64,000 nt of DNA from Ardenticatenaceae bacterium (GCA_020634245.1 JACKCC010000007.1:484555-548554); one strand, 5' to 3'. Numbered from the stretch's first letter, positions 1 to 63,464 are shown. A program made the numbers and translations. The notes: generated by a model from the letters alone, not told the origin.

Positions 1-1640
1 CCAGGCTCTCTACCAGATACGTCTGCCCCAAGTGCATGTAAATTGCCTCTTCATACAGCAGCAAGGGCACGCTCTCCAAATCAATCTCGCCGATAATTTC
101 CGGGGTCGAGCCGCTGGTGTCATGAATCAACACCGTCTCATCACTGCCGGTGCGCAAGGAGACACCGCCGGCCGGCACGCCTTCGCCCAAATAATGGTAC
201 TGCTGCCGGGTTTCGTGCAGCACACCGGCCTCCTCCATCAGTTCCAGCAGCGGATCGACCGGGCCAAAGCCGCCATACGCTTCCCCTTTTTGGAAGGGCA
301 GTTCGTAGGCGGCGCACTGCAAATGTTTGACCATGATGCGCTCATTGTCGGGATTGGTCAGCGCATGTTCCGGCGAGCGGCCGAACAGGTAGCGCGGATG
401 CTGGCAAATGTACTGGTCCAGCGGGCTGTTGCCGGCGATGAGCACCGCCGCCGATTGTTCGGCCCGACGCCCGGCGCGGCCCGCCTGCTGCCAGGTAGAA
501 GCAATCGAACCAGGATAACCGGCAATCACGGCCGCATCCAGTTCACCAATGTCAATGCCCAATTCCAGGGCATTGGTGGCCACGACGCCGCGCAGTTGGC
601 CAGTGCGTAAATTGTGCTCGATTTCGCGCCGTTCCAGGGGCAGGTAGCCGCCGCGATAGCCGGTAACGGCCGTATCCGCCCACCCTCTATACGCCAATTC
701 ATCCCGCAAATAAGTCAGCAGCAGTTCCACCGATTGGCGGGTTCGGGCAAAGAGGATGGTTTGCACATCTTCAGCCAGGAAGGTAACGGCCGTGTCCCGT
801 CCCGCAATCATCGTGCTGGCCCGCAGTCCCAACTCCTCGTCGATGATGGGCGGATTGTAGAGGATGAACTGTTTTTCGCCCGTTGGCGCGCCGTTTTGCG
901 ATTCGTCAATCAGGACAAACGGCGCTTCCACTAATCGTTCGGCATGTTCGCGTGGATTGGCAATCGTTGCTGAGGCACAAATAAACTGGGGATCGCTGCC
1001 GTAAAAGTGGCAGATTCGGCACAGCCGACGCAGCACGTTGGCGACGTGGCTGCCAAAAATGCCGCGATAAGCGTGGATTTCGTCCAGCACCACAAATTCT
1101 AGGTTGCTGAACAAATCGCGCCAGCCGGTGTGATAAGGCAAAATGCCGGCGTGCAGCATGTCGGGGTTGCTGATGAGGATACCGCCTGCCGCTCGCACTT
1201 TGCTGCGCTGGCCCCGCGGCGTATCGCCGTCGTAGCTGTTAACAGCAATGGGCAGGTTGCCGGCGGCGATGATGGCGTTGGTTTCGGCGGTCTGATCGTG
1301 GGACAGGGCTTTGGTGGGGAAAAGGTAGAGGGCGCGGGCGGACGGCCGTGCCAACAAACGCTGCAATACGGGTACGGTGTAACACAGGGACTTGCCCGAT
1401 GCGGTGGCGGTGGCGATGATGACGTTGTGGTGCTGGGCAACGGCCGTTATCGCGGCTGCCTGGTGCGTGAAAAACTGGTCAATGCCCCGACGGTGAAGCG
1501 CTAACTGAAATGAAGCGGGCAATATCACATCAGGCACGGCAAAAACTGCGGGACGCGAAGCAAATCGCTGCCAGGCAACCACCTGACGCACGAAATCCCG
1601 ATTTAACCGCAAATTATTGAGTGCAGCCGATATAGGCATG
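1..1640 (-). CDS. DEAD/DEAH-box (Lhr-like) ATP-dependent helicase, C-terminally truncated by the window edge
   Basis: Minus-strand translation from ATG at 1638-1640 gives MPISAALNNL... with Walker A TASGKS and a DEIH motif II. The plus-strand ORFs 32..610, 614..934 and 1130..1504 are antisense artefacts. Confidence 0.7.
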
Positions 1641-1714
1641 AGCCGATTATATCCATATTATTGACGGTCCGCTTTTGGAATGCAGTGTCGGTTTGTATTA
1701 CAGAGTTATCCAGA

Positions 1715-1760
1715 ATGTCATTCATATATTTATATTTTATAGTAGTCTATAGTAGGCCGT
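1715..1760. promoter_or_regulatory. AT-rich tract, a possible DNA-unwinding element within the oriC-like region
   Basis: About 85% AT over ~40 bp (ttcatatatttatattttatagtagtctatagtag) inside an otherwise GC-rich genome. Degenerate DnaA boxes lie nearby. Confidence 0.35.
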
Positions 1761-2007
1761 GTTGATATGTGGATACATTACTATGACCCCGTATATCTTC
1801 TACCGTGGCTCAGACCTACCCCATTTCTGGGGTGAGTTTTTTTACCGAACTCAGATAATCAGTGTGGATGATTTTGTTTGGTTCTGATTTACAAATAGGC
1901 AGCGTAAAACGGCCCTTTTTCTAGTACCCCCGTATATATGGGCGGTTATTACTCCGTTCCTATATCTGGTTCGGACCGGAACGGCCGTTCTGTTTTATCT
2001 GGCTGAA

Positions 2008-2057
2008 TTATCCACAAAATAGCCCTGTTTTCCACAAGAATAGGGCAGTTATCCACA
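2008..2057 (+). promoter_or_regulatory. Cluster of three phased DnaA boxes: TTATCCACA, TTTTCCACA, TTATCCACA
   Basis: Perfect 9-mers at 2008-2016 and 2049-2057 and a one-mismatch box at 2028-2036, all in the same orientation with 20-21 bp spacing. Further one-mismatch boxes occur at ~1705 (TTATCCAGA) and on the opposite strand at ~1762 (GTATCCACA) and ~1862 (TCATCCACA). Confidence 0.55.
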
Positions 2058-2355
2058 GATTTGACCGGTAAAAACAAAAAGACCGGCCTTCTCAAAGAAC
2101 CGGTCTTTTCGCCGTGACCCACATTTAGGGGAACACAGGTGTTGGCGGCATGTTGCCTCACGACCCATTTACGTTAAAATGAATCATGTTTGCGCATTGT
2201 AGCAGATGGAGTGATTAAGGGCAATGGCAATTCACTGTCTGTTGTTTGGGTGCGCGGAGTTTTTGGTGATGCTGGCGAGAGATTATAAAAGTCTGCCAGT
2301 CTGTTGTAATCTAGCCGGTCACAAAAGTTTCAGACACCCCGACAGATCAAACTGC

Positions 2356-2385
2356 TTGACAATCATAGTCTGAATTGACTAGAAT
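2356..2385 (+). promoter_or_regulatory. Sigma70-like promoter (TTGACA - 18 nt - TAGAAT) upstream of spoVS
   Basis: TTGACA at 2356-2361 and TAGAAT at 2380-2385. The downstream gene has a GGAGG RBS at 2452-2456. Confidence 0.4.
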
Positions 2386-2461
2386 TTGTTAGAAGGTGGT
2401 GGATTTCCCTATACTATGTCATGGGTTCCGATATCTAGGTGTCATTTACATGGAGGCCAAA

Positions 2462-12618: not shown

Positions 12619-12638
12619 GGTTGCGTTATAATGGAACT

Positions 12639-13475
12639 ATGTCCGACGAATATAGTTATGTAAACTCTACTGCACCCTTCCTGAAATGGGCTGGCGGCAA
12701 ACAGCGTCTGTTGACTCAGTATCAGCCTTTTTTCCCCACTGCCGACGCCATCGGGCATTATTTTGAGCCATTTATTGGCAGTGCTGCGGTCTTCTTTCAG
12801 CAGCAGTACCCGGTTGCCACCTTGTCCGACCAAAATGGGAAGCTCATTGAGGTGTATCAACAGGTGCGGGATGACTTGGACCAAGTATTTGAGGCATTGG
12901 CGCCACACCGGAATGAGCCTGATTATTATTACGAGGTTCGCTCCCAGAACCCGGTAGATTTGGTTCCCGCCGAGCGAGCGGCCCGCCTGATTTATTTGAA
13001 CAAGACCTGTTATAACGGGTTGTATCGTGAAAACAGCAAAGGGGAGTTTAATGTTCCTTTTGGCCGGTACAAGAACCCGAAAATTTGTGACGAAGTCCGA
13101 CTGCGGGCGGCGTCGGCGGCTTTGCGGGGCGTCAATCTGAAGGTGGCTGATTTTGCCGAGGCGGTGGCAACGGCCGTTGCCAATGATTTCGTTTATTTTG
13201 ACCCGCCATACGTTCCCTTAAGTCCAACCAGCAGTTTTACCAATTACCACAAAAATGGATTTGGTCAGGCCGATCAGGAACGATTGGCAGATGTAGTGGC
13301 TGAATTGACAAAGCGCAATGTGATGGTTATGTTAAGCAACTCCAGCGCGCCGTTGGTTTATGAGTTGTACGGCCGTTCCTCCTATCGAATCATCGACATT
13401 CAAGCCCGGCGCAATATCAACAGCAAAGCCGGCCAGCGGGGGCCGGTAAAAGAACTGCTCATCCTAAATTATTGA
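12639..13475 (+). CDS. Dam-class (D12) N6-adenine DNA methyltransferase, apparently solitary
   Basis: PFLKWAGGKQRLL (motif I-like) and YFDPPY (motif IV). A perfect TATAAT at 12627-12632 lies 6 nt before the ATG, suggesting a leaderless mRNA. Confidence 0.8.
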   Translation: MSDEYSYVNSTAPFLKWAGGKQRLLTQYQPFFPTADAIGHYFEPFIGSAAVFFQQQYPVATLSDQNGKLIEVYQQVRDDLDQVFEALAPHRNEPDYYYEVRSQNPVDLVPAERAARLIYLNKTCYNGLYRENSKGEFNVPFGRYKNPKICDEVRLRAASAALRGVNLKVADFAEAVATAVANDFVYFDPPYVPLSPTSSFTNYHKNGFGQADQERLADVVAELTKRNVMVMLSNSSAPLVYELYGRSSYRIIDIQARRNINSKAGQRGPVKELLILNY

Positions 13476-29756: not shown

Positions 29757-31406
29757 CTAATCAAACAGGCTTTTTTGCTGCGGGCCGGGTTCCTGGACGC
29801 GCTGCGCCTGTTTGAAGGTCATGCCGGTGGGCGGCATTTGCACCTGCGACCCATTCAGCAGCGCTTCAATCGTTAGAATTTGAATCTTGGGGTAGTTTTG
29901 GTTCCAGCCCGGCGAATGGTAAAAACCGGCCGACGCCGCTTCGGTTAGCATCGGTTTGCTGGGCGTTTCCAGGGTGATAAAGACGCCCATGACCGCTTTT
30001 TCCCGGTCAACTGTGCCTACCAAATCCCGAATCTGGCCGCTGCCGACTTTGCCGCTTTTGACCTGGACGACGATGCGTTTGGGCCGGCCGGTATTGTCAT
30101 CCATGAACGTGATCGTGCCGTCAATGCCCTTGTCGGCTCCCTTTTTGCCTTTTTTGCCGTCGTCACTGCCGCTGGGCATGGCTTTGATGAGCGACAAGGC
30201 CCACCACTCAAACTGGAAGCGGTCGTCCTGGGCCAACTGCTGGGCCGAACGGACTGATTCCGGCTCGCCGATGACGTCAAACGAGGCATCGGGGAACATT
30301 TCTTGCAGGCGGTATTTTTGCAGGGCGATGGAGAGATGGGTGATGTCGATCCCGATCCATTTGCGCCCCAGCTTTTGCGCGGCGGCGATGGTTGTGCCGC
30401 AGCCGCAGAAAGGATCGAGCACAATGTCGCCAGGGTTGCTGCTGGCTTCAATAATCCTTTCCAACAAGGTTAATGGTTTTTGAGTGGGATAACCAAGACG
30501 TTCTTTCGCTTGGGAACTGATGGGGGGAATATCTAGCCAAATGTCTTGTAAGGGAACTCCAGGCATTTCATCCAGATATTGTTTTAGGCGCGGTAATCCT
30601 GTTCTTGTGTAGTATAGTCGTCCTTCCTGATCGAATTTTTGCATATTCTCTCTGGAGTACGCCCAAAATCTGCCTTTAGTTGGCTTACGCCCTTTCCATT
30701 CGTAAGAGGTGTCACCTCCTGGTTTAGCCGCCGTTAAGTCAGTCGCCTTGAAGCGTCGTCCGGTTTCTTCTTCTACATACCGATAGTTGGACTCAACATA
30801 TTCTAGATCGTATTCTGTGTAAACAGTATTCCAAATCCATTCATTGCTCTTTGAATAAAAGAAAATAATGTCATGGATTCGACCCGGTTGTTTTGACCCT
30901 TGTCTCGCGTCACTATGAGCGGACGAGCGTTTCCAGATGATTTCAGCACGGAAGCCTGTGGGATTAAAAACCGCATCAAGTAAGATTTTCAAATAATGAC
31001 TTGCTGTGGGATCGCAATGCAAGTAAAGACTGCCGGTGGGTTTCAAAACTCGGTGCAACTCAACCAAACGGGCTGTCATCATGACCAAGTAAGCCATCAT
31101 TTGATTTGTACCAATAAATTCACGTAAAGCAGCAATCATTCGGCTTACTTCATCTGAAGTCTGGGTGACAAGTTCCTCGTAAAGCGCAGCAGTAGCGTGA
31201 TCCCAATGCCAGGTATCTTCAAATGCGGCAATTTGGGCCTCGGATTCTTCACCGCTTTCATACTTGAACAGGACGTTGTAAGTGCGCTTGGAATTAAACG
31301 GAGGGTCCAGATAAACCAGGTCAACGCTCTCGTCGGGGACGTAGTCGCGCAGGATGGGCAGGTTGTCGCCGTAAAATAACGTGTTTTTCGTGATCGCTTT
31401 GGTCAT
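29757..31406 (-). CDS. Beta-class N4/N6 DNA methyltransferase fused to a C-terminal Mrr-like (PD-(D/E)xK) restriction endonuclease domain
   Basis: DPPF motif IV (LDPPFNSK) precedes motif I (LDPFCGCGTT), which is the beta-class order. The C-terminal ~170 aa carry FQFEWWALSLIK ... DKGIDG ... VVQVK ... IRDLVG ... matching the Mrr catalytic-domain pattern. Confidence 0.75.
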   Translation of the reverse strand: MTKAITKNTLFYGDNLPILRDYVPDESVDLVYLDPPFNSKRTYNVLFKYESGEESEAQIAAFEDTWHWDHATAALYEELVTQTSDEVSRMIAALREFIGTNQMMAYLVMMTARLVELHRVLKPTGSLYLHCDPTASHYLKILLDAVFNPTGFRAEIIWKRSSAHSDARQGSKQPGRIHDIIFFYSKSNEWIWNTVYTEYDLEYVESNYRYVEEETGRRFKATDLTAAKPGGDTSYEWKGRKPTKGRFWAYSRENMQKFDQEGRLYYTRTGLPRLKQYLDEMPGVPLQDIWLDIPPISSQAKERLGYPTQKPLTLLERIIEASSNPGDIVLDPFCGCGTTIAAAQKLGRKWIGIDITHLSIALQKYRLQEMFPDASFDVIGEPESVRSAQQLAQDDRFQFEWWALSLIKAMPSGSDDGKKGKKGADKGIDGTITFMDDNTGRPKRIVVQVKSGKVGSGQIRDLVGTVDREKAVMGVFITLETPSKPMLTEAASAGFYHSPGWNQNYPKIQILTIEALLNGSQVQMPPTGMTFKQAQRVQEPGPQQKSLFD

Positions 31407-50748: not shown

Positions 50749-53099
50749 TCGTCGAAGAGGGTGGCTTCGGTAACGGCCGTTACCGAAGCATCAGACTGGC
50801 CAGCCGGTAAATGGACGGTGAAGCAGGAACCTTCACCGGGCTGACTGATAACGGTAATTTTGCCGCCCATCATCTGGCAAAAACGCTGGCTGATAGCCAA
50901 CCCTAACCCCGTGCCGCCATAATTGCGTGCCGTAGAAGAATCAGCTTGCATAAACGGCTGGAACAAATTCTCGGCCTGTGATGGTGTCATGCCAATGCCG
51001 TCATCACAGACCTCAAAATATAGCCAATCAGTTTTATCGGCACTGGTTTCCCGGTTCACAGACAATGTGATGTGCCCATCGTGGGTAAATTTGATGGCAT
51101 TGCTGAGCAAATTCATGATAATTTGCCGCAGTTTGGCCTGATCGACCGTGATGCGGCCCAAATTCTGAGCCAAATTCAAACTTAATTGATTGCTGCTATT
51201 TTTAATGAGCGGATCAACTGTGATTAACACATTGTCAATCAATTCCCGGATATTAACCGTCTCCAAATACAATTCTGTCCGGCCGGCTTCAATCTTGGAC
51301 ATATCCAGTACATCGTTGATAACGCCCAAAAGATGATGGGCCGACACCTCGATTTTCTCCAGCCGGTTAATCAAAGTGTCCCGGTCTAGATCGGGCGATT
51401 CTTCGCGCAGCAGCTCACTATAGCCGATGATGGCGGTGAGCGGCGTACGCAGTTCGTGGCTCATGTTTGCCAGAAAGGCACTTTTGGTCTGGCTGGCTGA
51501 TTCGGCCGCTTCTTTAGCGATAGATAATTCGTTGACCAGATGCTGCTCTTCATCGTACATTTGGGCGGTGCGCAGCGCCAGGGCAATCTGGTTGGCAGCA
51601 GATTGCATCAATTGCAGGTGGGTGTCCGTAAACCAGTGGGGTTCAGTGTGAGTTAAAGTCAAAATACCGACTACGCGGTCACTTTGCAAAATGGGCACGG
51701 ATAACGCGGAACGGGTTTCGTGCGGCCGATCGGGGAAATAGAGCCAGCGGTCGTCAAATCGCGCGTCGGTAATTAATGCGGCCTGACGATGGCGCATCAC
51801 CCATCCGGCCAGGCCATGAGTCATGACTTTTGTCTGGATGTTGGATTTTTGTTCAGACGAGTTGGGGTTATGGGCCAGGATACTGTTGATGATATTGGCT
51901 TGTTCATCCAAAACGAACAGGCTGCCTGCCTTTGCCTGGGTTAGCGTGGAAGCAATGTTGATGGTTCCCTGGAGGGTATCGTGCAAAAGCGGGCTTTGGG
52001 TAACGGCACGGGCGACGTCAACCAGGTTTTCGAAGAGTTGCTTTTGGTGATCGAGTTCAATTTCGGCCTGTTTGCGCTCGGTAATATCGCGGAGGAGGTA
52101 GAGACGGCCGTTCTCGATCTCCTGGTGATCATACAAAAACGACATATTGGAGGCAAAATAGCGGATTTTATCCGCTTCAACCAGTCGGATTTCGGCCTTT
52201 CCCTGATTTTGCTTGTATTGCTGGTTTAGCGGCAATAATGACCCGGCAAAAATTTCATCGACAGTCTGCCCAACCATACTTTTGGGTGAAAGGTGCAGCA
52301 GATCGCGGGCAGCCGGGTTCAAATCGACCAGTCTGTGTTCTTTGTTGAAAACAATCATGGCGTCGGTCATGTATTCAAGGGAGACGTGCCGGGCAATGGG
52401 ACTGATTTGCAAGACGTGAACTTTTACGATTCCCCGGGCCAGGAGAACGGCCGTTATCGCAAACGTGAATGGGGTCAAATCGAGATTGGCAATAGGCAAG
52501 AGGCCGGAAACGTAGAGCAGATTACCCAGCCACGGGAATAAGGCTGCCAACATCAGGCCGCGCATTTGTTGGCGATAAGGTTCGATAACCCGGCCAAACA
52601 TGCGCATCATCAATACCGTTCCCGTCAGCAGGCAAAAGTAAGAATATGCCCAATGGAGCCAAAAGGCTATGCCGTGCCCCAGAATCAAAGCCGGAAAAGG
52701 CCCTTGGGTGTCCAGTGTGATAGTTGTCCACAACCAATCTGCTTCTGGCTCTAACCAGGTGGAAAACAAGGTGATGGCAGGGATGATCCAAAGCAGCGGC
52801 CAGAATCGATACGATTTTTGCCAGCTTCGCGTGTAACGCAGACTGAAAATCAGGTAAAAAACAGGAACGCTGACGATGGCGTAGTATTGAACCTTGGCCC
52901 AGAACAGCTTGGTAGGAATGTCTCCTCCTAACAGTTCCAGGGCATATGCCCAGCACCATATGCTGGAAGAAGCAGCAAAGAAGGCAAAGATGGCCGCGCC
53001 AGCCGCCGCACGCCGCCGCCAGGCCGGTACAACGAGCGCTCCTGAAAATATGGCGGCCAGGAATAAGGGAATAGCATAGGGGGTGTATTGCCAGTTCAT
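50745..53099 (-). CDS. Sensor histidine kinase with a multi-TM N-terminus, PAS/GAF domains, HisKA and HATPase
   Basis: H-box [14 protein letters not shown]-box [12 protein letters not shown]. It overlaps the PBP gene stop by 4 nt on the opposite strand. Confidence 0.8.
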
Positions 53100-53148
53100 G
53101 ATTTTAAAGTCTTTCAGGAGTCAACGCGATGGTTTGGTTTGTAGATCA

Positions 53149-54729
53149 TTAGGCTACGGCCGTTTCCGCTAACGGCAGCGTAAAATAAAAAGTTGTTCCT
53201 TGCCGGAACTCGGATTCAAACCAAATACGGCCTCCATGCATTTCTACAATTTGTTTGGTGATACTCAATCCTAGTCCGGCACCGCGCCGTGCGCGCACTT
53301 GCTCATCACCTGACCGGAAAAACTGTGAAAAGATCATTGGTTGATCTTCTACGGCAATGCCCAGGCCGTCATCCTGCACGGCAACTTCGATGACAGATGG
53401 TTCGTGTTCTGTCCGCAATGTCGCCCATATTTGAACACGGCCGTTTTCAGGGGTGTACTTGTTGGCGTTGCTGATAAGGTTGGTAAGAACTTGCAAGAGT
53501 CGTTTATGATCGACCCATACTGGCGGCAAATTAAGCGGAATCGTAACTGTAACGGTTTGTTCTTTGGCAGTGAATTGAGGCTCAAGCAGTTGGTGGACGG
53601 CGTTTACGGCCGTTCCTATCGAAACCGCCGTCGGTTCCAGCTTCATTTTACCCGTTTCAATACGGGTAATATCATCCAATTCAATGACCAGGCCATGCAT
53701 CCGATCCGCCGCATCCTGAATAGCGTTGACAAACTGCGTCTGCTTTTCAGAGAGCGGTGTATGATTCAATTTGAGAATCAGATCGCCATATGCTTTGATA
53801 ACAGAAAGCGGTGTTTTTAATTCATGCGCCACCAGTGCCACAAAATCGCTCTTAGCCCGGTTAGCTGCTTGCGCTTGAGCGTACAAATAGGCATTGTTAA
53901 ACGCGATGGCTGCGTGATCGCGCAGTCGAGACAAAAAGCTGATATCACCCGACGTATAATTCTCCGTGCTTTCCAGCAGTAGCAATCCGCGTATCAGCCC
54001 ACTGCGTTGTATGGGAACCAGTACACGATAGGTCACTTCATTCAAAAGCCCTGTACCTGGTGCGAGCTTTTGTTTTTCAATACGACCGGTTGCCATTGCT
54101 TCATCCGCATCAATATCGGAACAAGTCAAAACTTTGTTCAGCAGATAATCTAAATTTTCGGATGCCTGTACGTGGACTTGTTTATCAATAATGGCTCCGA
54201 AAAGCCCGGCAGAAGCACCTGTTTGCTGTAATGCCCATTTCAGAATAATTTGAGCTACTTTGATCTCGTCCAGGTTGGTGTTCAGGTCTTGATCAATTTG
54301 CTGCAAAACAGCCAATTCGGCCAGGCGTGCTTTCTCCTGGTCGCGCAGACGTTTCTTTTCCAGAGAAGCCGAAATGCGCGCCCACAACAATGCCCCTTTA
54401 ATCGGTTTGAACAAATAGTCGTCCGCGCCTAACTCGATGCATTTGATGACGCTGTTCATATCGTCCAGCGCGGAAAGCACTACGACGGGGATGTGCTGCC
54501 ATGTGGGGTCTGCTTGCAGCTTTTCTAGTGTTTCGTACCCGTTCATTTCGGGCATCATGATGTCTAGAAGAATGAGGTCAACGGGAGTTTCCTGGAGGAG
54601 TTCGAGGGCGTGACGGCCGTTAACGGCCGTTTTCACTTCATAACCGCGCCGTTCCAGCCGGGCAGCCAATAATTCACGGACATCCTTGTTATCGTCAACT
54701 ACCAATACATTACTTTGCTGTGCTGTCAT
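53149..54729 (-). CDS. Hybrid response regulator-histidine kinase (REC, GAF-like, HisKA, HATPase)
   Basis: VLVVDDNKDVRELL...DLILLDIMMP is a REC domain. H-box ALVAHELKTPL. G-box GAGLGLSITKQ. Confidence 0.8.
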   Translation of the reverse strand: MTAQQSNVLVVDDNKDVRELLAARLERRGYEVKTAVNGRHALELLQETPVDLILLDIMMPEMNGYETLEKLQADPTWQHIPVVVLSALDDMNSVIKCIELGADDYLFKPIKGALLWARISASLEKKRLRDQEKARLAELAVLQQIDQDLNTNLDEIKVAQIILKWALQQTGASAGLFGAIIDKQVHVQASENLDYLLNKVLTCSDIDADEAMATGRIEKQKLAPGTGLLNEVTYRVLVPIQRSGLIRGLLLLESTENYTSGDISFLSRLRDHAAIAFNNAYLYAQAQAANRAKSDFVALVAHELKTPLSVIKAYGDLILKLNHTPLSEKQTQFVNAIQDAADRMHGLVIELDDITRIETGKMKLEPTAVSIGTAVNAVHQLLEPQFTAKEQTVTVTIPLNLPPVWVDHKRLLQVLTNLISNANKYTPENGRVQIWATLRTEHEPSVIEVAVQDDGLGIAVEDQPMIFSQFFRSGDEQVRARRGAGLGLSITKQIVEMHGGRIWFESEFRQGTTFYFTLPLAETAVA

Positions 54730-54829
54730 GTTGCTTGATGGGGACTGAACATGCTCCCCGCATCCTGATAATTGGTCTACTCTAATTGCTAACCTCAAAA
54801 GGTAAGGTTGACGAATTTGCCTCCCAACT

Positions 54830-55880
54830 TACACTCCTAAAGTTTGACACCACATCAGACAAAGGAGTATCCGATGAGAGGCTTAACAGATTATATTACA
54901 CAGGCAGCATGGAGCGATATTTTGACGGTTCAATATGTTTTGGTAGATGATTCTTATCAACAACTGGATGTCCATATTTTGCCTGAGCGCAAATTTGCAC
55001 CACAAGGGACGCCTTGCTTTAGTGATTCTGAGGTCATCACCATTGCCCTTTTGGGAGAGATGGTTTTTGCCGGTGATGAAGATAAAACACTGCACTTTAT
55101 ACGACAATATCATCTCGACATGTTTCCTCATTTGCTCGATAACTCTCGTTTCAATCGCCGTCGTCATCAGCTAGCGGGCGTCATGGAAGCGATTCGAGAG
55201 CATTTGCGAGACCGTTGGCGGGCAAAACATCCTCTAGATATCGAAACAGAAAACTTGCGTATCGTGGATAGTGCGCCCATCTCTATCTGCACCTATACTC
55301 GTGGTGGTCGTTGCCAGAGCATCCCATTAGATTGGCGAGATGAATGGTTTGGCGTTTGTACCAGCAAGAAAGCCAAGTTTTTTGGCGCGCGTTGCCACAT
55401 AACAACGACCCTAGACCAGATGATTGACACCTGGTTACTAGCTCCGGGTTCTTATGATGACCGTAAACCCATGGCCGCCTTGTTAGAAAATCGTCATGGA
55501 CTGTCCGTTATCGGCGACAAAGGCTATGTCAGTGAAGACCTCGCCCATCGTTTGTGGGAAGATGACCAACATCTACTCCTTGCTTTGAAGAAGGATAATC
55601 AAACAGAACAATGGCCTGACGGAATCCAACGAATATTGGGTTATTTGCGCCATCGGGTCGAAACAGCCTTTAGTGTGCTGGAAAACGTATTCGATTTTGA
55701 AAGTCCTAAATCCCGTTCGCTTGCTGGGTTGATTGCTCGGACAACCACGAAGATTTTGGCTTATACCATTAGCTTCTTTCTTGCCGAGATTCTCACCCCA
55801 GAGCTTAGCAATTAGAGTCTCATACTCCGCACGGTATACTATCTATTGTAAGGTTGTTATCAACTTTTCACTATGGCCTT
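54830..55880 (+). mobile_element. IS982-family insertion sequence (approximate ends)
   Basis: Single-ORF ~1 kb low-GC element between two GC-rich housekeeping genes. The inverted repeats were not identified, so the ends are approximate. Confidence 0.5.
54874..55815 (+). CDS. IS982-family DDE transposase
   Basis: AAGGAG RBS. D (VDSAPI), D (GDKGY) and E (RVETAF) motifs, typical of IS982/ISNCY-like transposases. The gene and its flanks have low GC. Confidence 0.65.
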   Translation: MRGLTDYITQAAWSDILTVQYVLVDDSYQQLDVHILPERKFAPQGTPCFSDSEVITIALLGEMVFAGDEDKTLHFIRQYHLDMFPHLLDNSRFNRRRHQLAGVMEAIREHLRDRWRAKHPLDIETENLRIVDSAPISICTYTRGGRCQSIPLDWRDEWFGVCTSKKAKFFGARCHITTTLDQMIDTWLLAPGSYDDRKPMAALLENRHGLSVIGDKGYVSEDLAHRLWEDDQHLLLALKKDNQTEQWPDGIQRILGYLRHRVETAFSVLENVFDFESPKSRSLAGLIARTTTKILAYTISFFLAEILTPELSN

Positions 55881-55992
55881 TTATTGCTAATTCGACTTAC
55901 GGAATAAGAGACACTATAAATCCAACAGCGTCACATTTCCGTCACCCCCCAAAAAGAAATGGTTCTTTGGGATTTCCTGGGGTCTTGAACTT

Positions 55993-56055
55993 GTCATGCT
56001 GAACAAAGTGAAGCATCCCAGAGGTGTTGGGATTCCTCGCTTCGCTCGGAATGAC
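55993..56055. repeat. MITE-like hairpin GTCATGCTGAACAAAGTGAAGCATCC...GGATTCCTCGCTTCGCTCGGAATGAC, copy 2
   Basis: Its 3' arm is 27/30 identical to 29672-29701. Confidence 0.5.
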
Positions 56056-56405
56056 AAAACCCCGCGAGATCCGAAAGACCCAAAGAAATCACAAGGTTCA
56101 TGTTTGATGAGAATGGTTTGTCGATGCGTTTGGGCACTGGGTCCGTTGAATGGGATTGGCCGTAAATCACTCATTTTGCGGCGTTTTTTCCAACTCGATT
56201 TGGGCGATTTTCACGAGTAACCATACCATTGCGTGATGGCGAAAAAGTTACCGTGAAATCAAATCCCATAGAACAGACCCAGTGCCTGCGTTTGTAATAT
56301 TTCTATAATAATTTTGTCAGCAAACTGTTATCAGCCGCAGGTATCATTCTATCAAGTAAAAAAATTGCTCAAGTAAAAATGACATAAATTCAGGCAGGAA
56401 AAATC

Positions 56406-57404
56406 ATGTTAATCAAAAAGCAAACCGGGATTGAAATTCCATCATCAGAAATAACGCCGGAACATATTTACCGAACCCGGCGCCAGTTTATGAAAAGTGC
56501 TGTGGCGTTGGCTGGCGGTGTCTTATTGGCGTCATGTGCTCCCAGGGCAGAAGAGACGGCTATGGAAGAGAGTACGGCCGTTCCCCCCACCACAACTCCC
56601 AAAACTGAACCGGCCACAACAACAGCCGCCCGTGCCACTGCCGACGAATTGGGCGATCCGCTCAACACCTTCGAGCAAATCACCAACTACAACAACTACT
56701 ACGAATTTACCACTGATAAAGAAGAAGTTGCTAAATTAGCTAAAGATTTCCCTACGTCACCCTGGCAAATTGAAGTAGGCGGCATGGTCAATAAGCCGCA
56801 AACATTCAGCATCGACGATTTGCGCGCCTTCGAGCAAGAAGAACGCATCTACCGGCTGCGCTGCGTCGAAGCCTGGTCTATGATCATCCCCTGGATGGGC
56901 TTCCCGCTGGCTAAACTGCTCCAAGCAGTAGAGCCAACCGCCGACGCCAAATACGTCCGCTTCGAGACCATCCTCGATCCTGATAATATGCCCGGTCAGA
57001 GAAGCCCCTGGTTCAACTGGCCCTATGTCGAAGGATTGCGCCTGGATGAAGCGATGAACGACTTAACCCTGATGGCTACCGGCTTGTACGGCAAGGAACT
57101 GATGCCCCAGAGTGGTGCGCCCCTCCGGCTGGTTGTGCCCTGGAAATACGGCTTCAAAAGCATCAAATCCATCGTTAAAATCGATTTGGTCGATAAAATG
57201 CCCGTTTCCCTGTGGATGGATTCTGCGCCCAACGAATACGGCTTTTACGCCAATGTCAATCCTGAAGTAGACCACCCTCGCTGGTCGCAGGCTACCGAAC
57301 GGCGTATTGGCGAACTCGGCCGCCGTGAAACGTTGATGTTCAACGGTTATGCTGAACAAGTCGCCTATTTGTACGATGGTATGGATTTACGGGCGAATTT
57401 CTAA
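56406..57404 (+). CDS. msrP: Protein-methionine-sulfoxide reductase catalytic subunit MsrP (YedY-like molybdoenzyme)
   Basis: TAT signal [14 protein letters not shown]. Sulfite-oxidase-family Moco domain. Confidence 0.75.
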
Positions 57405-58099
57405 TGAACAGCAGGAGCCAAAAGAATATGGACGTTATAATTTCGACACCTAAACGCAAAGTGAACCAGCAGCAAATCGGCCGATTGTTACGTGTTGTCA
57501 CCCACGTGGGTGCCTGGATACCGTTGGCCTTGCTGGCCTGGCAGTTCCAACAGGAGCAGCTCATTGATCCTGTACGCGATATTATTTTGCGTACAGGAAA
57601 ATTTACCCTCATTTTTCTTATGCTGTCGCTGGCAGTCACGCCGTTGAACAAGTTGTTTGGCTGGAAGCAGTTGATCCCGCTGCGACGGCCGTTAGGACTG
57701 TATGCCTTTTTATACGTCAGTTTACATCTGCTAACTTTCGTCTGGCTGGACTACGGCCTGAACTGGGCATTTATTGTGGATGGTATTTTTGAACAGCCCT
57801 ATGTCATAGTTGGATTTACCGCTTATTTGATGCTTATACCTCTGGCGGCTACCTCTACCAAATGGGCGATGCGCCGTTTAGGGAAAAATTGGAAGCGGTT
57901 ACACAGACTCGTTTATCTGATTGGCGCTTTGGGCATTCTCCATTTCTTTTGGTTGGTGAAGGCGTACCAGCGCCCCATTATGTATGGCTCGGTTATGGCG
58001 CTGCTGCTGCTGACGCGGGTAGGGCCAATATCGCGGCAGTTGGTTCGTTGGCGAAAAGGCTTGCAGAAACTCGGAAGAACCAGGCCTGCTGTTCATTAG
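57404..58099 (+). CDS. msrQ: MsrQ (YedZ-like haem-binding membrane subunit)
   Basis: Overlapping start/stop with msrP. Six TM helices with conserved His residues. Confidence 0.7.
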   Translation: MNSRSQKNMDVIISTPKRKVNQQQIGRLLRVVTHVGAWIPLALLAWQFQQEQLIDPVRDIILRTGKFTLIFLMLSLAVTPLNKLFGWKQLIPLRRPLGLYAFLYVSLHLLTFVWLDYGLNWAFIVDGIFEQPYVIVGFTAYLMLIPLAATSTKWAMRRLGKNWKRLHRLVYLIGALGILHFFWLVKAYQRPIMYGSVMALLLLTRVGPISRQLVRWRKGLQKLGRTRPAVH

Positions 58100-58117
58100 G
58101 ATTTTTACTTGAGGTGT

Positions 58118-58165
58118 GAACAAAAAAGACCGTCGTTTGGCATGAGGCGGCGGTCTTTTTTGTGG
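58118..58165. terminator. Bidirectional rho-independent terminator
   Basis: AAAAAAGACCGtCG-loop-CGgCGGTCTTTTTTG between convergent genes. Confidence 0.6.
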
Positions 58166-58167
58166 AT

Positions 58168-58866
58168 CTAGTTTAGCAGGATTTTGCCATTGCCGTCATC
58201 GATTAAACGGCCGTCCACCATCTTCAACACGCGGCTGGCATAAGCAACCACACGGGGATCATGCGTGGCAAAAACAAACGCCGTGCCCGTTTCCTCATTG
58301 AGCTTCTTCATAATTTCCATGGCTTGCTGGCCGTTTTCCGTATCCAGATTTGCCGTCGGTTCGTCAGCCAGGACAACGATTGGGTTTGTGGCCAATGCCC
58401 GGGCAATGGCCACCCGCTGCTGCTGGCCGCCGCTCATCTGATCAGGCCGGTGTTTAGCCCAGTCAGATAAACCGACTGCGTTCAGCAAGTAATTGACCCG
58501 TTCTTTCCGTTCCTTCTCACCTACGTTGTTGAGCAGCAGCGGCAGTTCCACATTTTCAAATGCCGAAAGCACCGGAACCAGCGCAAAAAACTGGAAGATG
58601 AAGCCGATCATCTCGCGCCGGATTTCGGCCCGCTGATTGGCTGTGAACCGGGTCACATCCTGCCCTTTGACCCGTATGATGCCGCTGTTGGGCTTATCCA
58701 GGCAGCCCAGCAGTTGCAGCATGGTCGTTTTGCCGGAGCCGGATGGCCCGACTAACGCAGCAAACTCTCCCGCTTTGATGTCCAGCGACACGTGGTCCAA
58801 GGCCAGTGTTTCCACTTCACCAATTTTATAAATCTTTGTGGCGTTTTCAGCTTCAATAATTGTCAT
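58168..58866 (-). CDS. ABC transporter ATP-binding protein (MacB/LolD-like)
   Basis: Walker [10 protein letters not shown], signature MSGGQQQR and Walker B VVLADEPT. Confidence 0.85.
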
Positions 58867-58958
58867 GATATGGTTCCTAATACGTCATGCGTCATAATTT
58901 TCTGTTGACGTATGACGCATGATGTATGAAATCAAGTAGACCTCACGAATTTCTAACC

Positions 58959-60188
58959 TTATAGTGCGTGTAACGCTTCCACTGGTTCCATTTTGGCTGC
59001 GATTGAGGCCGGATAGAGGGAGACCAGCGAGACGATGACCAAGAGCATCAACGAAAGTATGGCGAACTGAACTGGTGCAAAGCCACCTTTTATGGTCGTT
59101 CCCATGGCAAATCCTTCCACCAGAGAGGCGACTTCCGGCGGGAAAGAAAAGCCGACGTAGGTCATGTAGGCCACGACACCCAGCCCCAGCGCCAATCCGA
59201 TAACAATGCCCAACAAGGCTAATAAAATACCTTCAATAAGGAACAGCAGGATGATTTGGCGGCGGTTCATACCCAGGGAAGCCAGGATGCCAATTTCCTG
59301 TGCGCGGGCAAAAACGGACATGAGCAGGGTGTTGGCAATGAGAACGGCCACCGCCAGGAAGACGATCCCGTAGAGGATATAATAAAAGAAAATGCCATTT
59401 CCGACGCTTTCCAGCAATAGCTTGTTCAGGTTTTCCCATGTCAGAACCTGGGTGTCTGGGGTGGTAAACTTGGCGGTGGTAACGGCCGTATCCCCCTCGT
59501 TGTTCAACATCACAATCAAACTGCTAAACCGGTCGCCCACCCCGCTGAAAGACTGAGCCTGGGCTAAAGGCATGATAACCCTGTTTTGATCAATACTGGG
59601 AAAGCCCGTGTCCACCAGCCCGGCAACCGTAAAAACCCCTTCTTGACCGTTACCATTGGCATCGCTGGCAGCTATACTGACCCGTTGACCGACCGCAATC
59701 CCCATTTGCCTGGCCAGTACATTGCCCACCAAAATAAGGCCGCGATCATCGTTTTGCAGGTATTCGCCGGCCACGATGCCATCACGAATTGGTTGGTGAA
59801 ACGCATCTTCCATATCAATGCCCACGATTTGGACGCCAATTGATTCCTGGGAAGTACTCAACAAACCGCCGCTCCATAGAACCGGCGCTGCCGACTTTAC
59901 CTCAGATATGGCTTCGGCCTGCGCGGCCCAGGCGGCGCTGTCTTCCAACATATCTTTGGAAAGCAGGCTGGCCTTATCCTCATCGTAGCTTGCGGCCCGG
60001 ACTTGCAGATGCCCGGTGCTCATGCGGATGTTATCGGCAAGCATGGAAGTGAGCATACCGTCTATCATGCTGCTCATGGCCATTACTACCACCAGACCCA
60101 GGGCGACTGCCAGCGCGGTGAGGGTTGTTCTACGGCCGTTTCTCACCAAATTTCGGTAAGCAATAGAAAAAAATCTGCCAATAGCCAT
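58959..60188 (-). CDS. ABC transporter permease, FtsX/MacB-type
   Basis: N-terminal TM helix, large periplasmic domain and a C-terminal FtsX-like 3-TM bundle. Confidence 0.75.
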   Translation of the reverse strand: MAIGRFFSIAYRNLVRNGRRTTLTALAVALGLVVVMAMSSMIDGMLTSMLADNIRMSTGHLQVRAASYDEDKASLLSKDMLEDSAAWAAQAEAISEVKSAAPVLWSGGLLSTSQESIGVQIVGIDMEDAFHQPIRDGIVAGEYLQNDDRGLILVGNVLARQMGIAVGQRVSIAASDANGNGQEGVFTVAGLVDTGFPSIDQNRVIMPLAQAQSFSGVGDRFSSLIVMLNNEGDTAVTTAKFTTPDTQVLTWENLNKLLLESVGNGIFFYYILYGIVFLAVAVLIANTLLMSVFARAQEIGILASLGMNRRQIILLFLIEGILLALLGIVIGLALGLGVVAYMTYVGFSFPPEVASLVEGFAMGTTIKGGFAPVQFAILSLMLLVIVSLVSLYPASIAAKMEPVEALHAL

Positions 60189-60198
60189 ACCCGTCTCC

Positions 60199-61440
60199 TT
60201 AAACGTAATGCAGCGATTCGGCCGGTTCCCGCTGGGCAGCCTGCCAGGCCGGATACAGCGCCGCCAGACCGCCTATCAAAACAGCCGCCAAACCGTAGAT
60301 AATAATGGCTGTATTGGAGATAGCCGGGTAAAGTTGTGTTCCCATCAATGCATAAAGCTCCCCTGCTTCCCCCAGATCGGAGTAAACCATCGAAAAATCA
60401 ATCCCAACCCGGCCCAGCCAGGCTACAAACGCCCAGCTTAGAACACAACCAACGACAGCCCCAATCAGACCAATTAAAGCGCCTTCTAGCACAAAGAGTC
60501 CCATAATCTGGTTGCCCTTCAGACCCAAAGCCGCCAGCACACCCATTTCCCGCGTTCGCTCAAAAACAGCCATGAGCATCAAATTGAGAATGCCCACGGC
60601 CCCCATTAAAAGCAGAATGCCGCCCAGCATCAGCCCAAACACCCGGTCAAACTCCAGCGCCTGGGCAAATTCCGGCCGCAGGGTGTAAATTGAATCGACT
60701 TCGTGGTTGGGGAATTCAGGCGCGATAACGTCGATCAAGGCATCTTCCTCGCCGATTTTCTCCAGAATAACAGCGACCTCGGTTACTTCGCCACGCAGGT
60801 TGTACAATGTTTGTGTCGTGGGCAGGTTGATAAAGACCAGCCCTTTTTCGGCTTCACCTAAGCCCAGGTCAAAAATGCCGACAACCGTCATCGAGCGCTG
60901 GCGCATTGATTCATCCTTGCGCCGACCCAGCAAAGAGACACGGTCGCCAATCGAGACGTTGAGATAATCGGCCAGCGCCTGCCCAATGACGATATTGTCC
61001 CCATCATCCGGCTGCAAAAAGCGTCCGGCGACGATATTTTCGGCGGCCAGACTGATGGGCGCTTCAGTTTCCGGCTCAATCGCCGTGATGTTGACGGCGT
61101 GCGAAGCGCTGCGGTTGCTGATTAGCCCGCCTGTATTAATCCGTCTGGAAGCCGCAATAACATTGGGCTGCGAACGCACCTCTGCCAAAATGGCATCGAC
61201 ATCGGCTACCGGCAGCATGGGCAGCCGGGTTGATTTTTCGCGGTAACCGGGCGCATGAATCAATACGTTGCCGCCATAAAGCCGCACAGTATTGCCATAA
61301 ATTGACTGATCCATGCCATCCATAAAGGCTTGAAAAAAGATGAGCAAAAACATACTCAGGATGATGGCGACGGTGGCAATCAGGGTACGCCGCCAATTGC
61401 GCCACATATTTCGCCAGGCCAATTTGATGAATTTCAGCAT
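60199..61440 (-). CDS. ABC transporter permease, FtsX/MacB-type (paralogue)
   Basis: Same architecture as the permease at 58959-60188. Confidence 0.75.
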   Translation of the reverse strand: MLKFIKLAWRNMWRNWRRTLIATVAIILSMFLLIFFQAFMDGMDQSIYGNTVRLYGGNVLIHAPGYREKSTRLPMLPVADVDAILAEVRSQPNVIAASRRINTGGLISNRSASHAVNITAIEPETEAPISLAAENIVAGRFLQPDDGDNIVIGQALADYLNVSIGDRVSLLGRRKDESMRQRSMTVVGIFDLGLGEAEKGLVFINLPTTQTLYNLRGEVTEVAVILEKIGEEDALIDVIAPEFPNHEVDSIYTLRPEFAQALEFDRVFGLMLGGILLLMGAVGILNLMLMAVFERTREMGVLAALGLKGNQIMGLFVLEGALIGLIGAVVGCVLSWAFVAWLGRVGIDFSMVYSDLGEAGELYALMGTQLYPAISNTAIIIYGLAAVLIGGLAALYPAWQAAQREPAESLHYV

Positions 61441-61477
61441 ATCCTCAATCCTTTTCGTTCTCGTTCATTTTTCACAA

Positions 61478-61509
61478 TTTTCCCGGAAACTTTGGAGTTT
61501 CCGGGAAAA
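61478..61509. repeat. TTCC(C)GGAA composite palindrome, copy e (compact form)
   Basis: TTTTCCCGGAAACT-ttgg-AGTTTCCGGGAAAA. Confidence 0.6.
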
Positions 61510-61530
61510 TGAATGCCCAAGTTATTTGAC

Positions 61531-61596
61531 ATGGGCGAGGCAATCGGAGAGAAGGCCGTTTGCTAAACCAAGATCATAGCCGATTGCCTCGCCCAT
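61531..61596. repeat. Perfect 17-bp-stem hairpin
   Basis: ATGGGCGAGGCAATCGG ...32 nt... CCGATTGCCTCGCCCAT. Confidence 0.6.
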
Positions 61597-61655
61597 ACGA
61601 TTACTGGTTATTTAGTCGAGAGAATCATAAATCACCTACTATCTTTTTACAACAT

Positions 61656-63464
61656 TTAGTCGGTGTTTTCTTGCGGGTGGGAGACACGGCCGTTATCCCC
61701 CACCGTCTCTTTTTGCAGCAATATTCCCATCAGCCCGTCCACCAAACCGGAACCGCTGCTGCCGCTCACCGACACATCAGGCACAATCCGGACCTGACGG
61801 TCACCGACCACCTGCATCAATTGCAGCGCCGTAAATCCTTGCGGCCCTAGCGCCTCCACACCAGCCCGGTACGCTTCTGCCTTCGCCTCGCCGATTTTGC
61901 GTACCGCTTCCGCCTCGCCCAGGGCTTGCAGCCGTGTCGCTTCCGCTTCACCGGTCGCCCGCTTGATTTCGGCTTTGGCCCGCAGTTCGGCAATCGTCAC
62001 GCCCTGCTCCGAGCTGACCATATCCTGCTGGATATCGGCCATGGCTGTAGCCCGCACCAACTCCTGCCGCTGGTCTTGAGCCAGCTTTTGAATGTTGTAC
62101 GTTTCCCGCTGTTCTTCAGCGATTTTACGTTCCGTTTGCGTGCGCATCAGCTCTTCCGGCGGCGTGATGTCGCCGATGAGTGTGTCCAGCGCCTGCACAT
62201 CATAAGCACTGATGGCCCGACGGATGTGGGCTGTCGCTTCCACCTGCCGCTCGCTGCGGGCGCTCAGAAAGTCCAGTACCGTATACTCCTGTGCCGAGTT
62301 ACGGAAATAGTTGCCTACAATCGGCTGCAAGACATGGTCTACCAGATTTTGTACCGAGCCGACGCGCGAGATGACTTTAGGCGCTTCCGGCGCACCGATG
62401 TGGATAATCTGCGACACGTCCAGGTTAAAAGCAAAACCATCCTTGGAGCGCACGGTGATAGGCGACAATTGGGCATCGTAGCGATGGGATTCGGTGCGGC
62501 TGGCCCAGTTGAGGACGATGTTGGTCGTTGGCACCAGTTCGACTTTCATCACCATGGGATTGATGGGATGTTTGCCGGGATAAAGTGGTGTGACCCAGAC
62601 GCCTTTGTGGCCCGGTTCCACCAGATTGCCATGCTTAAATGCTTCGCCGCTGACGTCTTGATGGGCCTTGCCGACATAGGCAATGACGATGCCGACGTGC
62701 CCGATGGGGATTTCGGTCATTGGGACCTGTTCCACGCTGACGAACCAGGGGTTGAGGTTCCAGGAACCGGACAGCAGCACCTGCTCCTGCAAACCACGTC
62801 GTCCAATGTTGTCCAGGAAGGATTGGGCGTCCTGGAAGTTGTTGTGTTCGTGGACGATTGGGCCGGCTATCTCACCTTCGTCGATGGAACGGCCGTCCAA
62901 CGTCGTCACAATCCCCACCCGATCCGGCTGCACCGAGTAAACGTGAAGCTGGCGCGGCGTCATGCCGTGTGTTTCTGCATTCTGGGCCGTGATTACCGAG
63001 AACAAGGCGCTGTTGATGCGGTAGGTACCGGCAGTTAAAATGCCAAGCTGCCGCCCTTTTTCGCCCCGATTCATCAAGAACTTGCGCGCATCCTGAAAAT
63101 TATCGCAGTCTACCACGCGAGCCAAAATTCGTTCTGGCGGAATGGAAGCGCCGGCCGCCGCCACTACCAGGCCGATTTCACCCTGGGGTACGACGGTTAC
63201 GGGCACTTTGCGCACAGCAAACCGCCAGGGGAAATAGCCAAAATGCCAGCCGGGCGCCAGTGTGTCGGCCTGATAACCGGCTTCGCCTTTGAGGGCAATG
63301 AGCTGGCCGGGGGCCAGCCGCGAACCAAATTTCTTGACCACAACGCCCACTTCTCGCTCGTTGACGATGACCAGCCCCAGTAAGGAGCGTGCTGAAAGGG
63401 CGATGATAACCAGAGCGACCAGGCCAATAAAGATAATAAGCAGGATTGTTGATACGATTGACAT
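61656..63464 (-). CDS. SPFH/band-7 flotillin-like protein
   Basis: N-terminal TM helix, SPFH domain and a long Ala/Glu-rich coiled-coil C-terminus (EAEATRLQALGEAEAVRKIGEAKAEAYRAG). Confidence 0.8.
   Translation of the reverse strand: MSIVSTILLIIFIGLVALVIIALSARSLLGLVIVNEREVGVVVKKFGSRLAPGQLIALKGEAGYQADTLAPGWHFGYFPWRFAVRKVPVTVVPQGEIGLVVAAAGASIPPERILARVVDCDNFQDARKFLMNRGEKGRQLGILTAGTYRINSALFSVITAQNAETHGMTPRQLHVYSVQPDRVGIVTTLDGRSIDEGEIAGPIVHEHNNFQDAQSFLDNIGRRGLQEQVLLSGSWNLNPWFVSVEQVPMTEIPIGHVGIVIAYVGKAHQDVSGEAFKHGNLVEPGHKGVWVTPLYPGKHPINPMVMKVELVPTTNIVLNWASRTESHRYDAQLSPITVRSKDGFAFNLDVSQIIHIGAPEAPKVISRVGSVQNLVDHVLQPIVGNYFRNSAQEYTVLDFLSARSERQVEATAHIRRAISAYDVQALDTLIGDITPPEELMRTQTERKIAEEQRETYNIQKLAQDQRQELVRATAMADIQQDMVSSEQGVTIAELRAKAEIKRATGEAEATRLQALGEAEAVRKIGEAKAEAYRAGVEALGPQGFTALQLMQVVGDRQVRIVPDVSVSGSSGSGLVDGLMGILLQKETVGDNGRVSHPQENTD

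Follow-up and report, generated by a model that had tools for sequence, protein, structure and literature searches.

What is a cluster of DnaA boxes beside an AT-rich tract when no dnaA gene accompanies it? In bacteria, linkage to dnaA (or dnaN) is the commonest position of oriC, but it is not obligatory, and E. coli is the standard exception. Such a cluster lies in a 64,000-nt stretch of DNA from an Ardenticatenaceae bacterium (here called the window), in the gap between a gene for a DEAD/Helicase_C/WHD_HRQ1 helicase on the minus strand and, to the right, a spoVS gene (both assigned by Pfam). At 822 bp this gap is the largest ORF-free stretch in the window's ORF list, and with 42.9% GC it is enriched in AT relative to the window as a whole (52.2%), both as an earlier note on this DNA had described; the latter figure makes its mention of a GC-rich genome an overstatement. 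That neither dnaA nor dnaN is adjacent, as also remarked there, holds for all 64 kb: Pfam scanning of all ORFs of at least 300 aa and tblastn with the DnaA of a relative found neither gene in the window. The analysis leads us to predict, with a probability of roughly 0.8, that positions 1704–2059 are the DnaA-dependent oriC of an Ardenticatenaceae/Promineifilaceae-like Chloroflexota genome, unlinked from dnaA (features in Table 1). A literature search found no description of an origin for this Chloroflexota group.

Six DnaA boxes with at most one mismatch are found across 352 bp (1706–2057). Three of them form a same-strand series with start-to-start distances of 20 and 21 bp, exactly as noticed before; the other three, previously placed at about 1705, 1762 and 1862, exist on the strands then given, with true starts at 1706, 1768 and 1863. 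When the 821-bp region itself was simulated by a first-order Markov model (n = 5000), the mean was 0.31 boxes and the maximum three, and none of the 5000 simulations reached six; the whole window holds 26 matches at this threshold versus 12.0 ± 3.3 in whole-window shuffles. An oriC cluster has been defined as at least three DnaA boxes with at most one mismatch and a mean spacing below 100 bp (PMC7561715), a description that fits 1706–2057. Between box 1706 and the proximal pair lies the least stable 40-mer of the window (1715–1754; nearest-neighbour energy −38.9 versus a mean of −56.6, SD 4.5), that is, an easily melted element; the tract of about 40 bp and about 85% AT reported earlier is correct for these 40 bp (82%), but not with the boundaries 1715–1760, which give 74%. 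A plasmid origin was considered and rejected, as blastn against plasmids gave no match; no tRNA was found in the gap region, and Rfam, searched at a permissive threshold, gave no family match there, just two hits at chance level that stayed below threshold.

Table 1. Coordinates of features in and around the predicted origin (window positions; A1 and A2 are the two alignments described in the text)
Feature	Position	Strand	Remarks
Intergenic region	1640–2461		Helicase ATG at 1637–1639 (minus) to spoVS ATG at 2462; ORF lists and Pfam
Likely helicase −10, TATAAT	1646–1651	−	Six bases upstream of ATG; ATTATA nearly invariant in A1
Conserved core module of about 360 bp, predicted oriC	1704–2059		nhmmer profile from A1, E 1e-56
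One-mismatch DnaA box TTATCCAGA	1706–1714	+	Far (left) side of AT tract; reads AAGTTATCCA in A1 and A2
Candidate DNA-unwinding element, AT-rich	1715–1754		82% AT; AT/T-rich in all relatives, sequence varies
TATAGTAG-TC-TATAGTAG with DnaA-trio-like TAGTAG (1740–1745, 1750–1755)	1738–1755	+	
GC-rich spacer GCCG, from trio-like repeats to proximal boxes	1756–1759		GGGC/GGCC in relatives
Two-mismatch DnaA box ATATCAACA	1760–1768	−	Shares position 1768 with the GTATCCACA box
One-mismatch DnaA box GTATCCACA	1768–1776	−	
Proximal box pair ATATCAACA + GTATCCACA	1760–1776	−	CTG(T/G)(T/G)GATATGTG kept in all aligned relatives
CCCCGTATATCT, CCCCATATCT-type motif copy 1	1787–1798	+	Position-conserved in A1
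CCCCATTTCTGG, motif copy 2	1819–1830	+	Forms the first "terminator" hairpin; relatives have CCCCATATCTTTC, without hairpin or T-run
Middle DnaA box TCATCCACA, one mismatch	1863–1871	−	TGTGGA invariant in A1 and A2
CCCCCGTATATATGGG, motif copy 3	1927–1942		Palindromic in the window
TCCTATATCT, motif copy 4	1958–1967	+	Relatives read CCCCATAT(A/C/G)TG
Perfect DnaA box TTATCCACA	2008–2016 and 2049–2057	+	
DnaA box TTTTCCACA	2028–2036	+	
Phased triple TTATCCACA-N11-TTTTCCACA-N12-TTATCCACA	2008–2057	+	Columns and spacing invariant in 22 (A1) and 15 (A2) sequences
Intrinsic terminator hairpin, probable relic of the dnaA terminator	2075–2112	−	Aligns with the hairpin between dnaA stop and boxes of linked relatives
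CCCACATTTAGGGG, one more CCCC..GGG copy of the motif, in what was the 3′ flank of dnaA	2118–2131		Aligned with CCCCAGTAATGGG-like sequences downstream of dnaA
GCCGCCAACACCT, post-stop-codon sequence of relatives' dnaA, probable deletion scar	2137–2149	−	Invariant in the window, L001, L002, L059 and L021
Promoter-like TTGCCC-17-(TGC)TACAAT, toward terminator and boxes	2196–2224	−	CTGCTACAATGC common to the window, L001 and L002
spoVS promoter TTGACA-18-TAGAAT, directed away from the origin	2356–2385	+	11/12 consensus matches

A search with the helicase recovered relatives from Chloroflexota assemblies only (Ardenticatenaceae, Promineifilaceae, Ca. Leptofilum, Anaerolineae), the best match having 80% protein identity; in most of them the helicase-spoVS neighbourhood is syntenic, and a box cluster precedes the helicase at a distance of about 400 bp. 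The window gap was aligned with 21 orthologous gaps from dnaA-less loci, whose helicases are 64–80% identical (alignment A1). Mean column identity is 36% and, outside the fixed elements, the gap is barely alignable; every box, the box spacing, the TAGTAG-GC-box unit and the AT-rich tract are kept in all 22 loci. The fixed series begins with AAGTTATCCA (window 1706), followed by an AT/T-rich tract and, at window positions 1740–1772, by TAGTA..GTAGTAG-GG(G/C)C-CTG(T/G)(T/G)GATATGTG, in which the TAGTAG at 1750–1755 is invariant; it continues with four position-conserved CCCCATATCT-type motifs and TTGTGGA (window 1863), and ends with TT(A/T)TCCACA-N11-TTTTCCACA-N12-TTATCCACA, the box columns being invariant, before the spoVS promoter TTGACA-N18-TAGAAT. 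According to a profile built on window 1700–2060, 39 related loci hold a single full-length copy of the core each, 17 of them loci that had not been used in building it; the profile has no match in the loci of displaced dnaA genes or in distant (outgroup) helicase loci. In the relative NZ_OZ244997.1, the module is located near 3.72 Mb.

Ten helicase loci contain an ORF of 450–480 residues between spoVS and the box cluster. Three of these ORFs were scanned with Pfam and carry DnaA_N, Bac_DnaA and Bac_DnaA_C each, and the other seven are dnaA by tblastn (66–96% identity). The gene reads toward the boxes and ends about 100 bp short of the phased triple. In a second alignment (A2, 15 sequences), which includes such dnaA-downstream elements, the window element is colinear with them, in the same order and orientation, and TAGTAG (1750–1755) is nearly invariant. 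An eleventh dnaA-linked genome, L088, has spoVS, dnaA and the module together with the helicase elsewhere, while L038 has two further genes between boxes and helicase and an unchanged module. As the module is located directly downstream of full-length dnaA in 11 relatives, the window element is the ortholog of a dnaA-linked oriC; since L088 retains spoVS-dnaA-module without the helicase, the module is the constant part around which dnaA, the helicase and inserted genes vary.

What follows the linked dnaA gene is still legible in the window. In L059 and L021, the TAG stop codon of dnaA runs into (G)CCGCCAACACCT, so that GCCGCCAACACCT begins at the G of the stop codon; beyond it lie, in turn, a CCCC..GGG motif, a hairpin of the terminator type and the boxes. 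The same succession of 13 nt, motif, hairpin and boxes is present in the window and its relatives L001 and L002, with dnaA absent upstream of the 13 nt. The stem sequences of the 2075–2112 hairpin differ among relatives with the pairing kept; it folds with −21.0 kcal/mol on the minus strand versus −14.8 on the plus strand, and the U-run UUUUUGUUUUU follows on the minus strand, which is that of dnaA. The hairpin seen before at 2075–2110 is thus terminator-like indeed, but best on the minus strand, where it would be the former terminator of dnaA. The likely ancestor had dnaA between spoVS and the three boxes, reading toward the boxes; in the lineage of the window, L001 and L002, the dnaA coding sequence would have been cut out, the break falling at its stop codon or no more than a few bases from it. 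With dnaA removed and its 3′ flank and terminator left in place, the origin would now be unlinked from dnaA. The proposal of the earlier note that the region is an oriC displaced from dnaA thereby gains support, both from the dnaA-linked orthologous module and from the retained flank. In a rough neighbour-joining tree of the helicase, which is too crude to count events of dnaA loss, the dnaA-linked loci fall in several subclades; this suggests linkage as the ancestral state and more than one departure of dnaA from the locus.

In five other related assemblies (L081, L084, L085, L086 and L089/L090), a displaced dnaA was recovered, in unrelated contexts; none of these genomes is known to have the window's dnaA-less arrangement. 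The five genes have zero to one box upstream and zero to two in the 500 bp to either side; the conserved module is not found within 10 kb of any of them; with no box cluster at these loci, dnaA evidently moves in this group without taking the cluster along. Searches with DnaA homologues yielded only dnaA-linked genomes or ones with a module-less helicase locus (JACKBX, JAHDWK). In the latter two, the module is present at neither the helicase nor the dnaA locus (L015 and L081 in JACKBX, L053 and L090 in JAHDWK), so that a third site, which could be beside spoVS, must hold their origin. An alternative origin at 5400–5660 of L081 was rejected, as it is a 42-bp tandem repeat unrelated to the module; each of its units carries TTTTCCACA and the palindrome TCTGGCGGCCACCAGA, and the repeat is located 4.4 kb upstream of the displaced dnaA.

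Plus-strand GC skew is positive for about 50 kb rightward of the element, including stretches of minus-strand genes. In 24 relatives, viewed in the orientation of the locus, mean skew is −0.066 before the element, on the spoVS side, and −0.002 after it, on the helicase side, with a rise in 22 of them, and when genes are separated by strand the replication-type component of the skew is −0.059 and +0.007, respectively. Since this is a step at the expected position without a clean change of sign, and covers 10 kb only beyond the helicase, the skew is consistent with an origin, but not decisive. Gene-strand bias was not seen in the 64-kb window. From about 53 kb on (window 53000–62000) the skew is negative, beside a gene for a DDE transposase (54844–55812); this stretch may be a local inversion or rearrangement.

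Could the element have been retired from initiation? A former origin might be kept as a secondary DnaA-binding locus for titration or regulation, with the active origin having moved with dnaA or being located near dnaN. The absence of dnaA from locus and window would agree with this, as would a skew that steps to about zero at the element with no flip of sign, and none of the displaced dnaA loci recovered is known to belong to a window-type genome. However, what is kept in 22 dnaA-less species is not boxes alone but also the AT tract, TAGTAG, the GC spacer and the proximal boxes; the five displaced dnaA loci are without a cluster, and the module is single-copy wherever found and is the dnaA-adjacent cluster itself in 11 genomes, all of which makes a retired origin improbable. 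E. coli datA and DARS and the non-oriC box clusters of B. subtilis share with the element the presence of DnaA boxes away from dnaA. datA and DARS are defined by activity, that is, hydrolysis of DnaA-bound ATP or nucleotide (ADP) exchange, have IHF/Fis sites in a defined arrangement and are known from relatives of E. coli; to our knowledge, neither they nor the B. subtilis clusters have been described with a conserved unwinding module, nor are they orthologs of an origin that adjoins dnaA.

The boxes might instead be mere operators of a DnaA-controlled promoter region serving spoVS and/or the helicase gene. The spoVS TTGACA is invariant in 22 relatives and in seven of them the third box directly abuts this −35 hexamer, so DnaA occupancy could affect spoVS transcription as a side role; as a full account we hold this to be very unlikely, because an entire dnaA gene lies between boxes and spoVS in 10 relatives, the module is unchanged with the two extra genes before the helicase in L038 and is present without the helicase in L088, and seven boxes over 350 bp plus an AT tract far exceed what an operator needs. 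Still less credence is due to a locus devoted mainly to small RNAs, with the hairpins as terminators of short transcripts. Terminator-like hairpins do exist, and the promoter-like site at 2196–2224 combined with the terminator at 2075–2112 would yield an RNA of about 120 nt in the window, L001 and L002; such an RNA lies outside the conserved core, though, and leaves the boxes unexplained, no Rfam family matches, and the 2075 hairpin is already accounted for as the dnaA terminator. The short plus-strand transcript surmised earlier from the hairpins at 1819–1850 and 2075–2110 is not supported in that form, and the first of the two is not a conserved terminator: the structure (1817–1834 with its T-run, −12.4 kcal/mol) is a copy of the repeated CCCCAT motif, namely motif copy 2, combined with a T-run peculiar to the window. 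A third hairpin candidate (1977–1992) coincides with a copy of the palindrome that is iterated throughout this genome, and its folding is not better than that of shuffled sequences.

As a DnaA-dependent oriC, the element can be compared with characterised origins. In B. subtilis, incC needs a distal set of boxes and a proximal pair beside DnaA-trios (PMC6669920), and the BUS model consists of boxes, a short GC spacer, trinucleotide repeats 3′-GAT-5′ (that is, 5′-TAG-3′) and an AT tract (PMC8287927, PMC7561715). Shared with incC, which occupies the dnaA-dnaN spacer, are the distal boxes and the proximal pair beside a GC spacer, TAG-type repeats and an AT tract (PMC6669920, PMC8287927), and also the position immediately downstream of dnaA in the linked relatives; TAGTAG-GCCG-TGTTGATAT/GTGGATAC of the window has the order and polarity of the BUS model, the repeats being 5′ of the boxes on the box-carrying strand, as in the 5′-tailed scaffolds of PMC8287927. 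Unlike in B. subtilis, the next gene is the HRQ1/DEAD-type helicase instead of dnaN, a second box cluster upstream of dnaA is not evident in most relatives, and the window has two in-frame TAG repeats, an extra box beyond the AT tract and no dnaA any more. The published search rule for BUS calls for a box with at most two mismatches, a spacer of 0–16 bp and at least three in-frame NAN triplets on the trio strand (PMC8287927). On the TAGTAG side of the window, there are the box ATATCAACA, a 4-nt GC spacer and two in-frame TAG triplets where the rule asks for at least three; L002, L028, L031, L059 and L020 have three or four. On the side of box 1706, an 11-nt spacer and four NAN triplets fit the rule, which is permissive in T-rich DNA; of the 39 modules, 25 satisfy it on the left and 12 on the right. 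The rule does not discriminate between the sides of the AT tract.

The E. coli oriC has gidA/mnmG and mioC as its neighbours and is some 40 kb away from dnaA. The predicted origin shares with it an AT-rich element at one end beside a TGTGGATAA-oriented box, two sets of boxes in opposite orientation and flanking promoters; unlike it, the region has no 13-mer or GATC array, and the boxes are 20 and 21 bp apart instead of being closely packed low-affinity sites. The E. coli origin is also unlinked from dnaA (PMC8287927, PMC6669920), but in the window the unlinking has left a visible scar, and relatives with a linked dnaA are still at hand for comparison. The single GATC of the origin region (2345) gives no sign of control of the Dam/SeqA type. 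Two methyltransferases are encoded elsewhere in the window, a D12-class (Dam-like) adenine methyltransferase (12621–13472) and a fusion of an N6/N4 methylase with an Mrr-type nuclease (29760–31406).

From how characterised origins work, the following sequence of events can be proposed. DnaA would occupy the high-affinity triple, whose spacing of two helical turns would place it on one face of the helix, as well as the oppositely oriented boxes at 1863 and 1760–1776. The proximal boxes, beside GC spacer and TAGTAG, and box 1706 would steer a DnaA-ATP oligomer into 1715–1754, and this tract would melt for helicase loading, while the helicase and spoVS promoters would fire outward on both sides of the element. 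As the layout resembles that of characterised origins, we favour a DnaA-driven opening of 1715–1754, for which the flanking boxes would be the nucleation sites and the phased triple a support; a filament might load from either side. The spacing between TATAAT and ATG suggests that the helicase mRNA is leaderless and reads away from the origin. In the Leptofilum-like group, the 5′ leader of spoVS is strongly conserved (TCATCCTGAGCA...ATGACACC...GGTTCAT...TTGGAGGCC; A1 columns ~1115–1215; the window differs) and may be a structured leader.

In kind, the element is an ordinary oriC of the DnaA-box type, as found in textbooks, and an origin unlinked from dnaA is already known from E. coli. Less ordinary are the legible excision scar, the presence of both linked and unlinked states among relatives and the array of CCCCATATCT-type motifs. 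For filamentous Chloroflexota, represented here by metagenome assemblies alone, the analysis provides a well-supported prediction of an origin, and the group offers a natural series, with dnaA linked to the origin, removed, or separated from it by insertions, which is useful for asking what linkage contributes.

The CCCCATATCT-type motif is directional, and every origin module has between four and six copies of it, conserved in position; such an array is not known from the B. subtilis oriC. Counted by a fixed pattern, as a position-weight matrix was too blurred to inform, its density is 5.6 per kb in the modules, versus 0.17 in other intergenic DNA and 0.07 in ORFs. Upstream of dnaA it reaches 1.6 per kb for displaced and 1.2 for linked genes, a 7–10 fold enrichment over other intergenic DNA (L081, L084–L086 and linked loci). 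It is possible, though we offer it tentatively, that the array serves an undescribed trans-acting factor or an unusual binding mode of DnaA which couples origin firing with dnaA expression; if true, such coupling could explain why dnaA departed from the origin harmlessly, apparently more than once. Where dnaA once was, the window now has a putative minus-strand promoter, judged by its sequence, reading toward the relic terminator; through this promoter-terminator cassette (2196–2224 to 2075–2112, minus strand), transcription in the direction of the boxes may have been kept. Promoter-like TTGCCC-17-TGCTACAAT and relic terminator enclose about 120 nt, conserved among the three closest genomes (window 2066–2224, L001 9470–9650, L002 8870–9047); this segment has no Rfam match and could give rise to a small transcript that runs toward the origin boxes from the former place of dnaA.

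The window is also rich in another short sequence, the palindrome ACGGCCGT, for which a literature search found no description. It occurs 111 times in 64 kb versus 1.2 expected from dinucleotide shuffles, about once per 580 bp and in genes and spacers alike (e.g. at 666, 786, 1342, 1440, 1981 and 3273), a density comparable to that of cyanobacterial HIP1; the origin regions of relatives often carry AACGGCCGTT.
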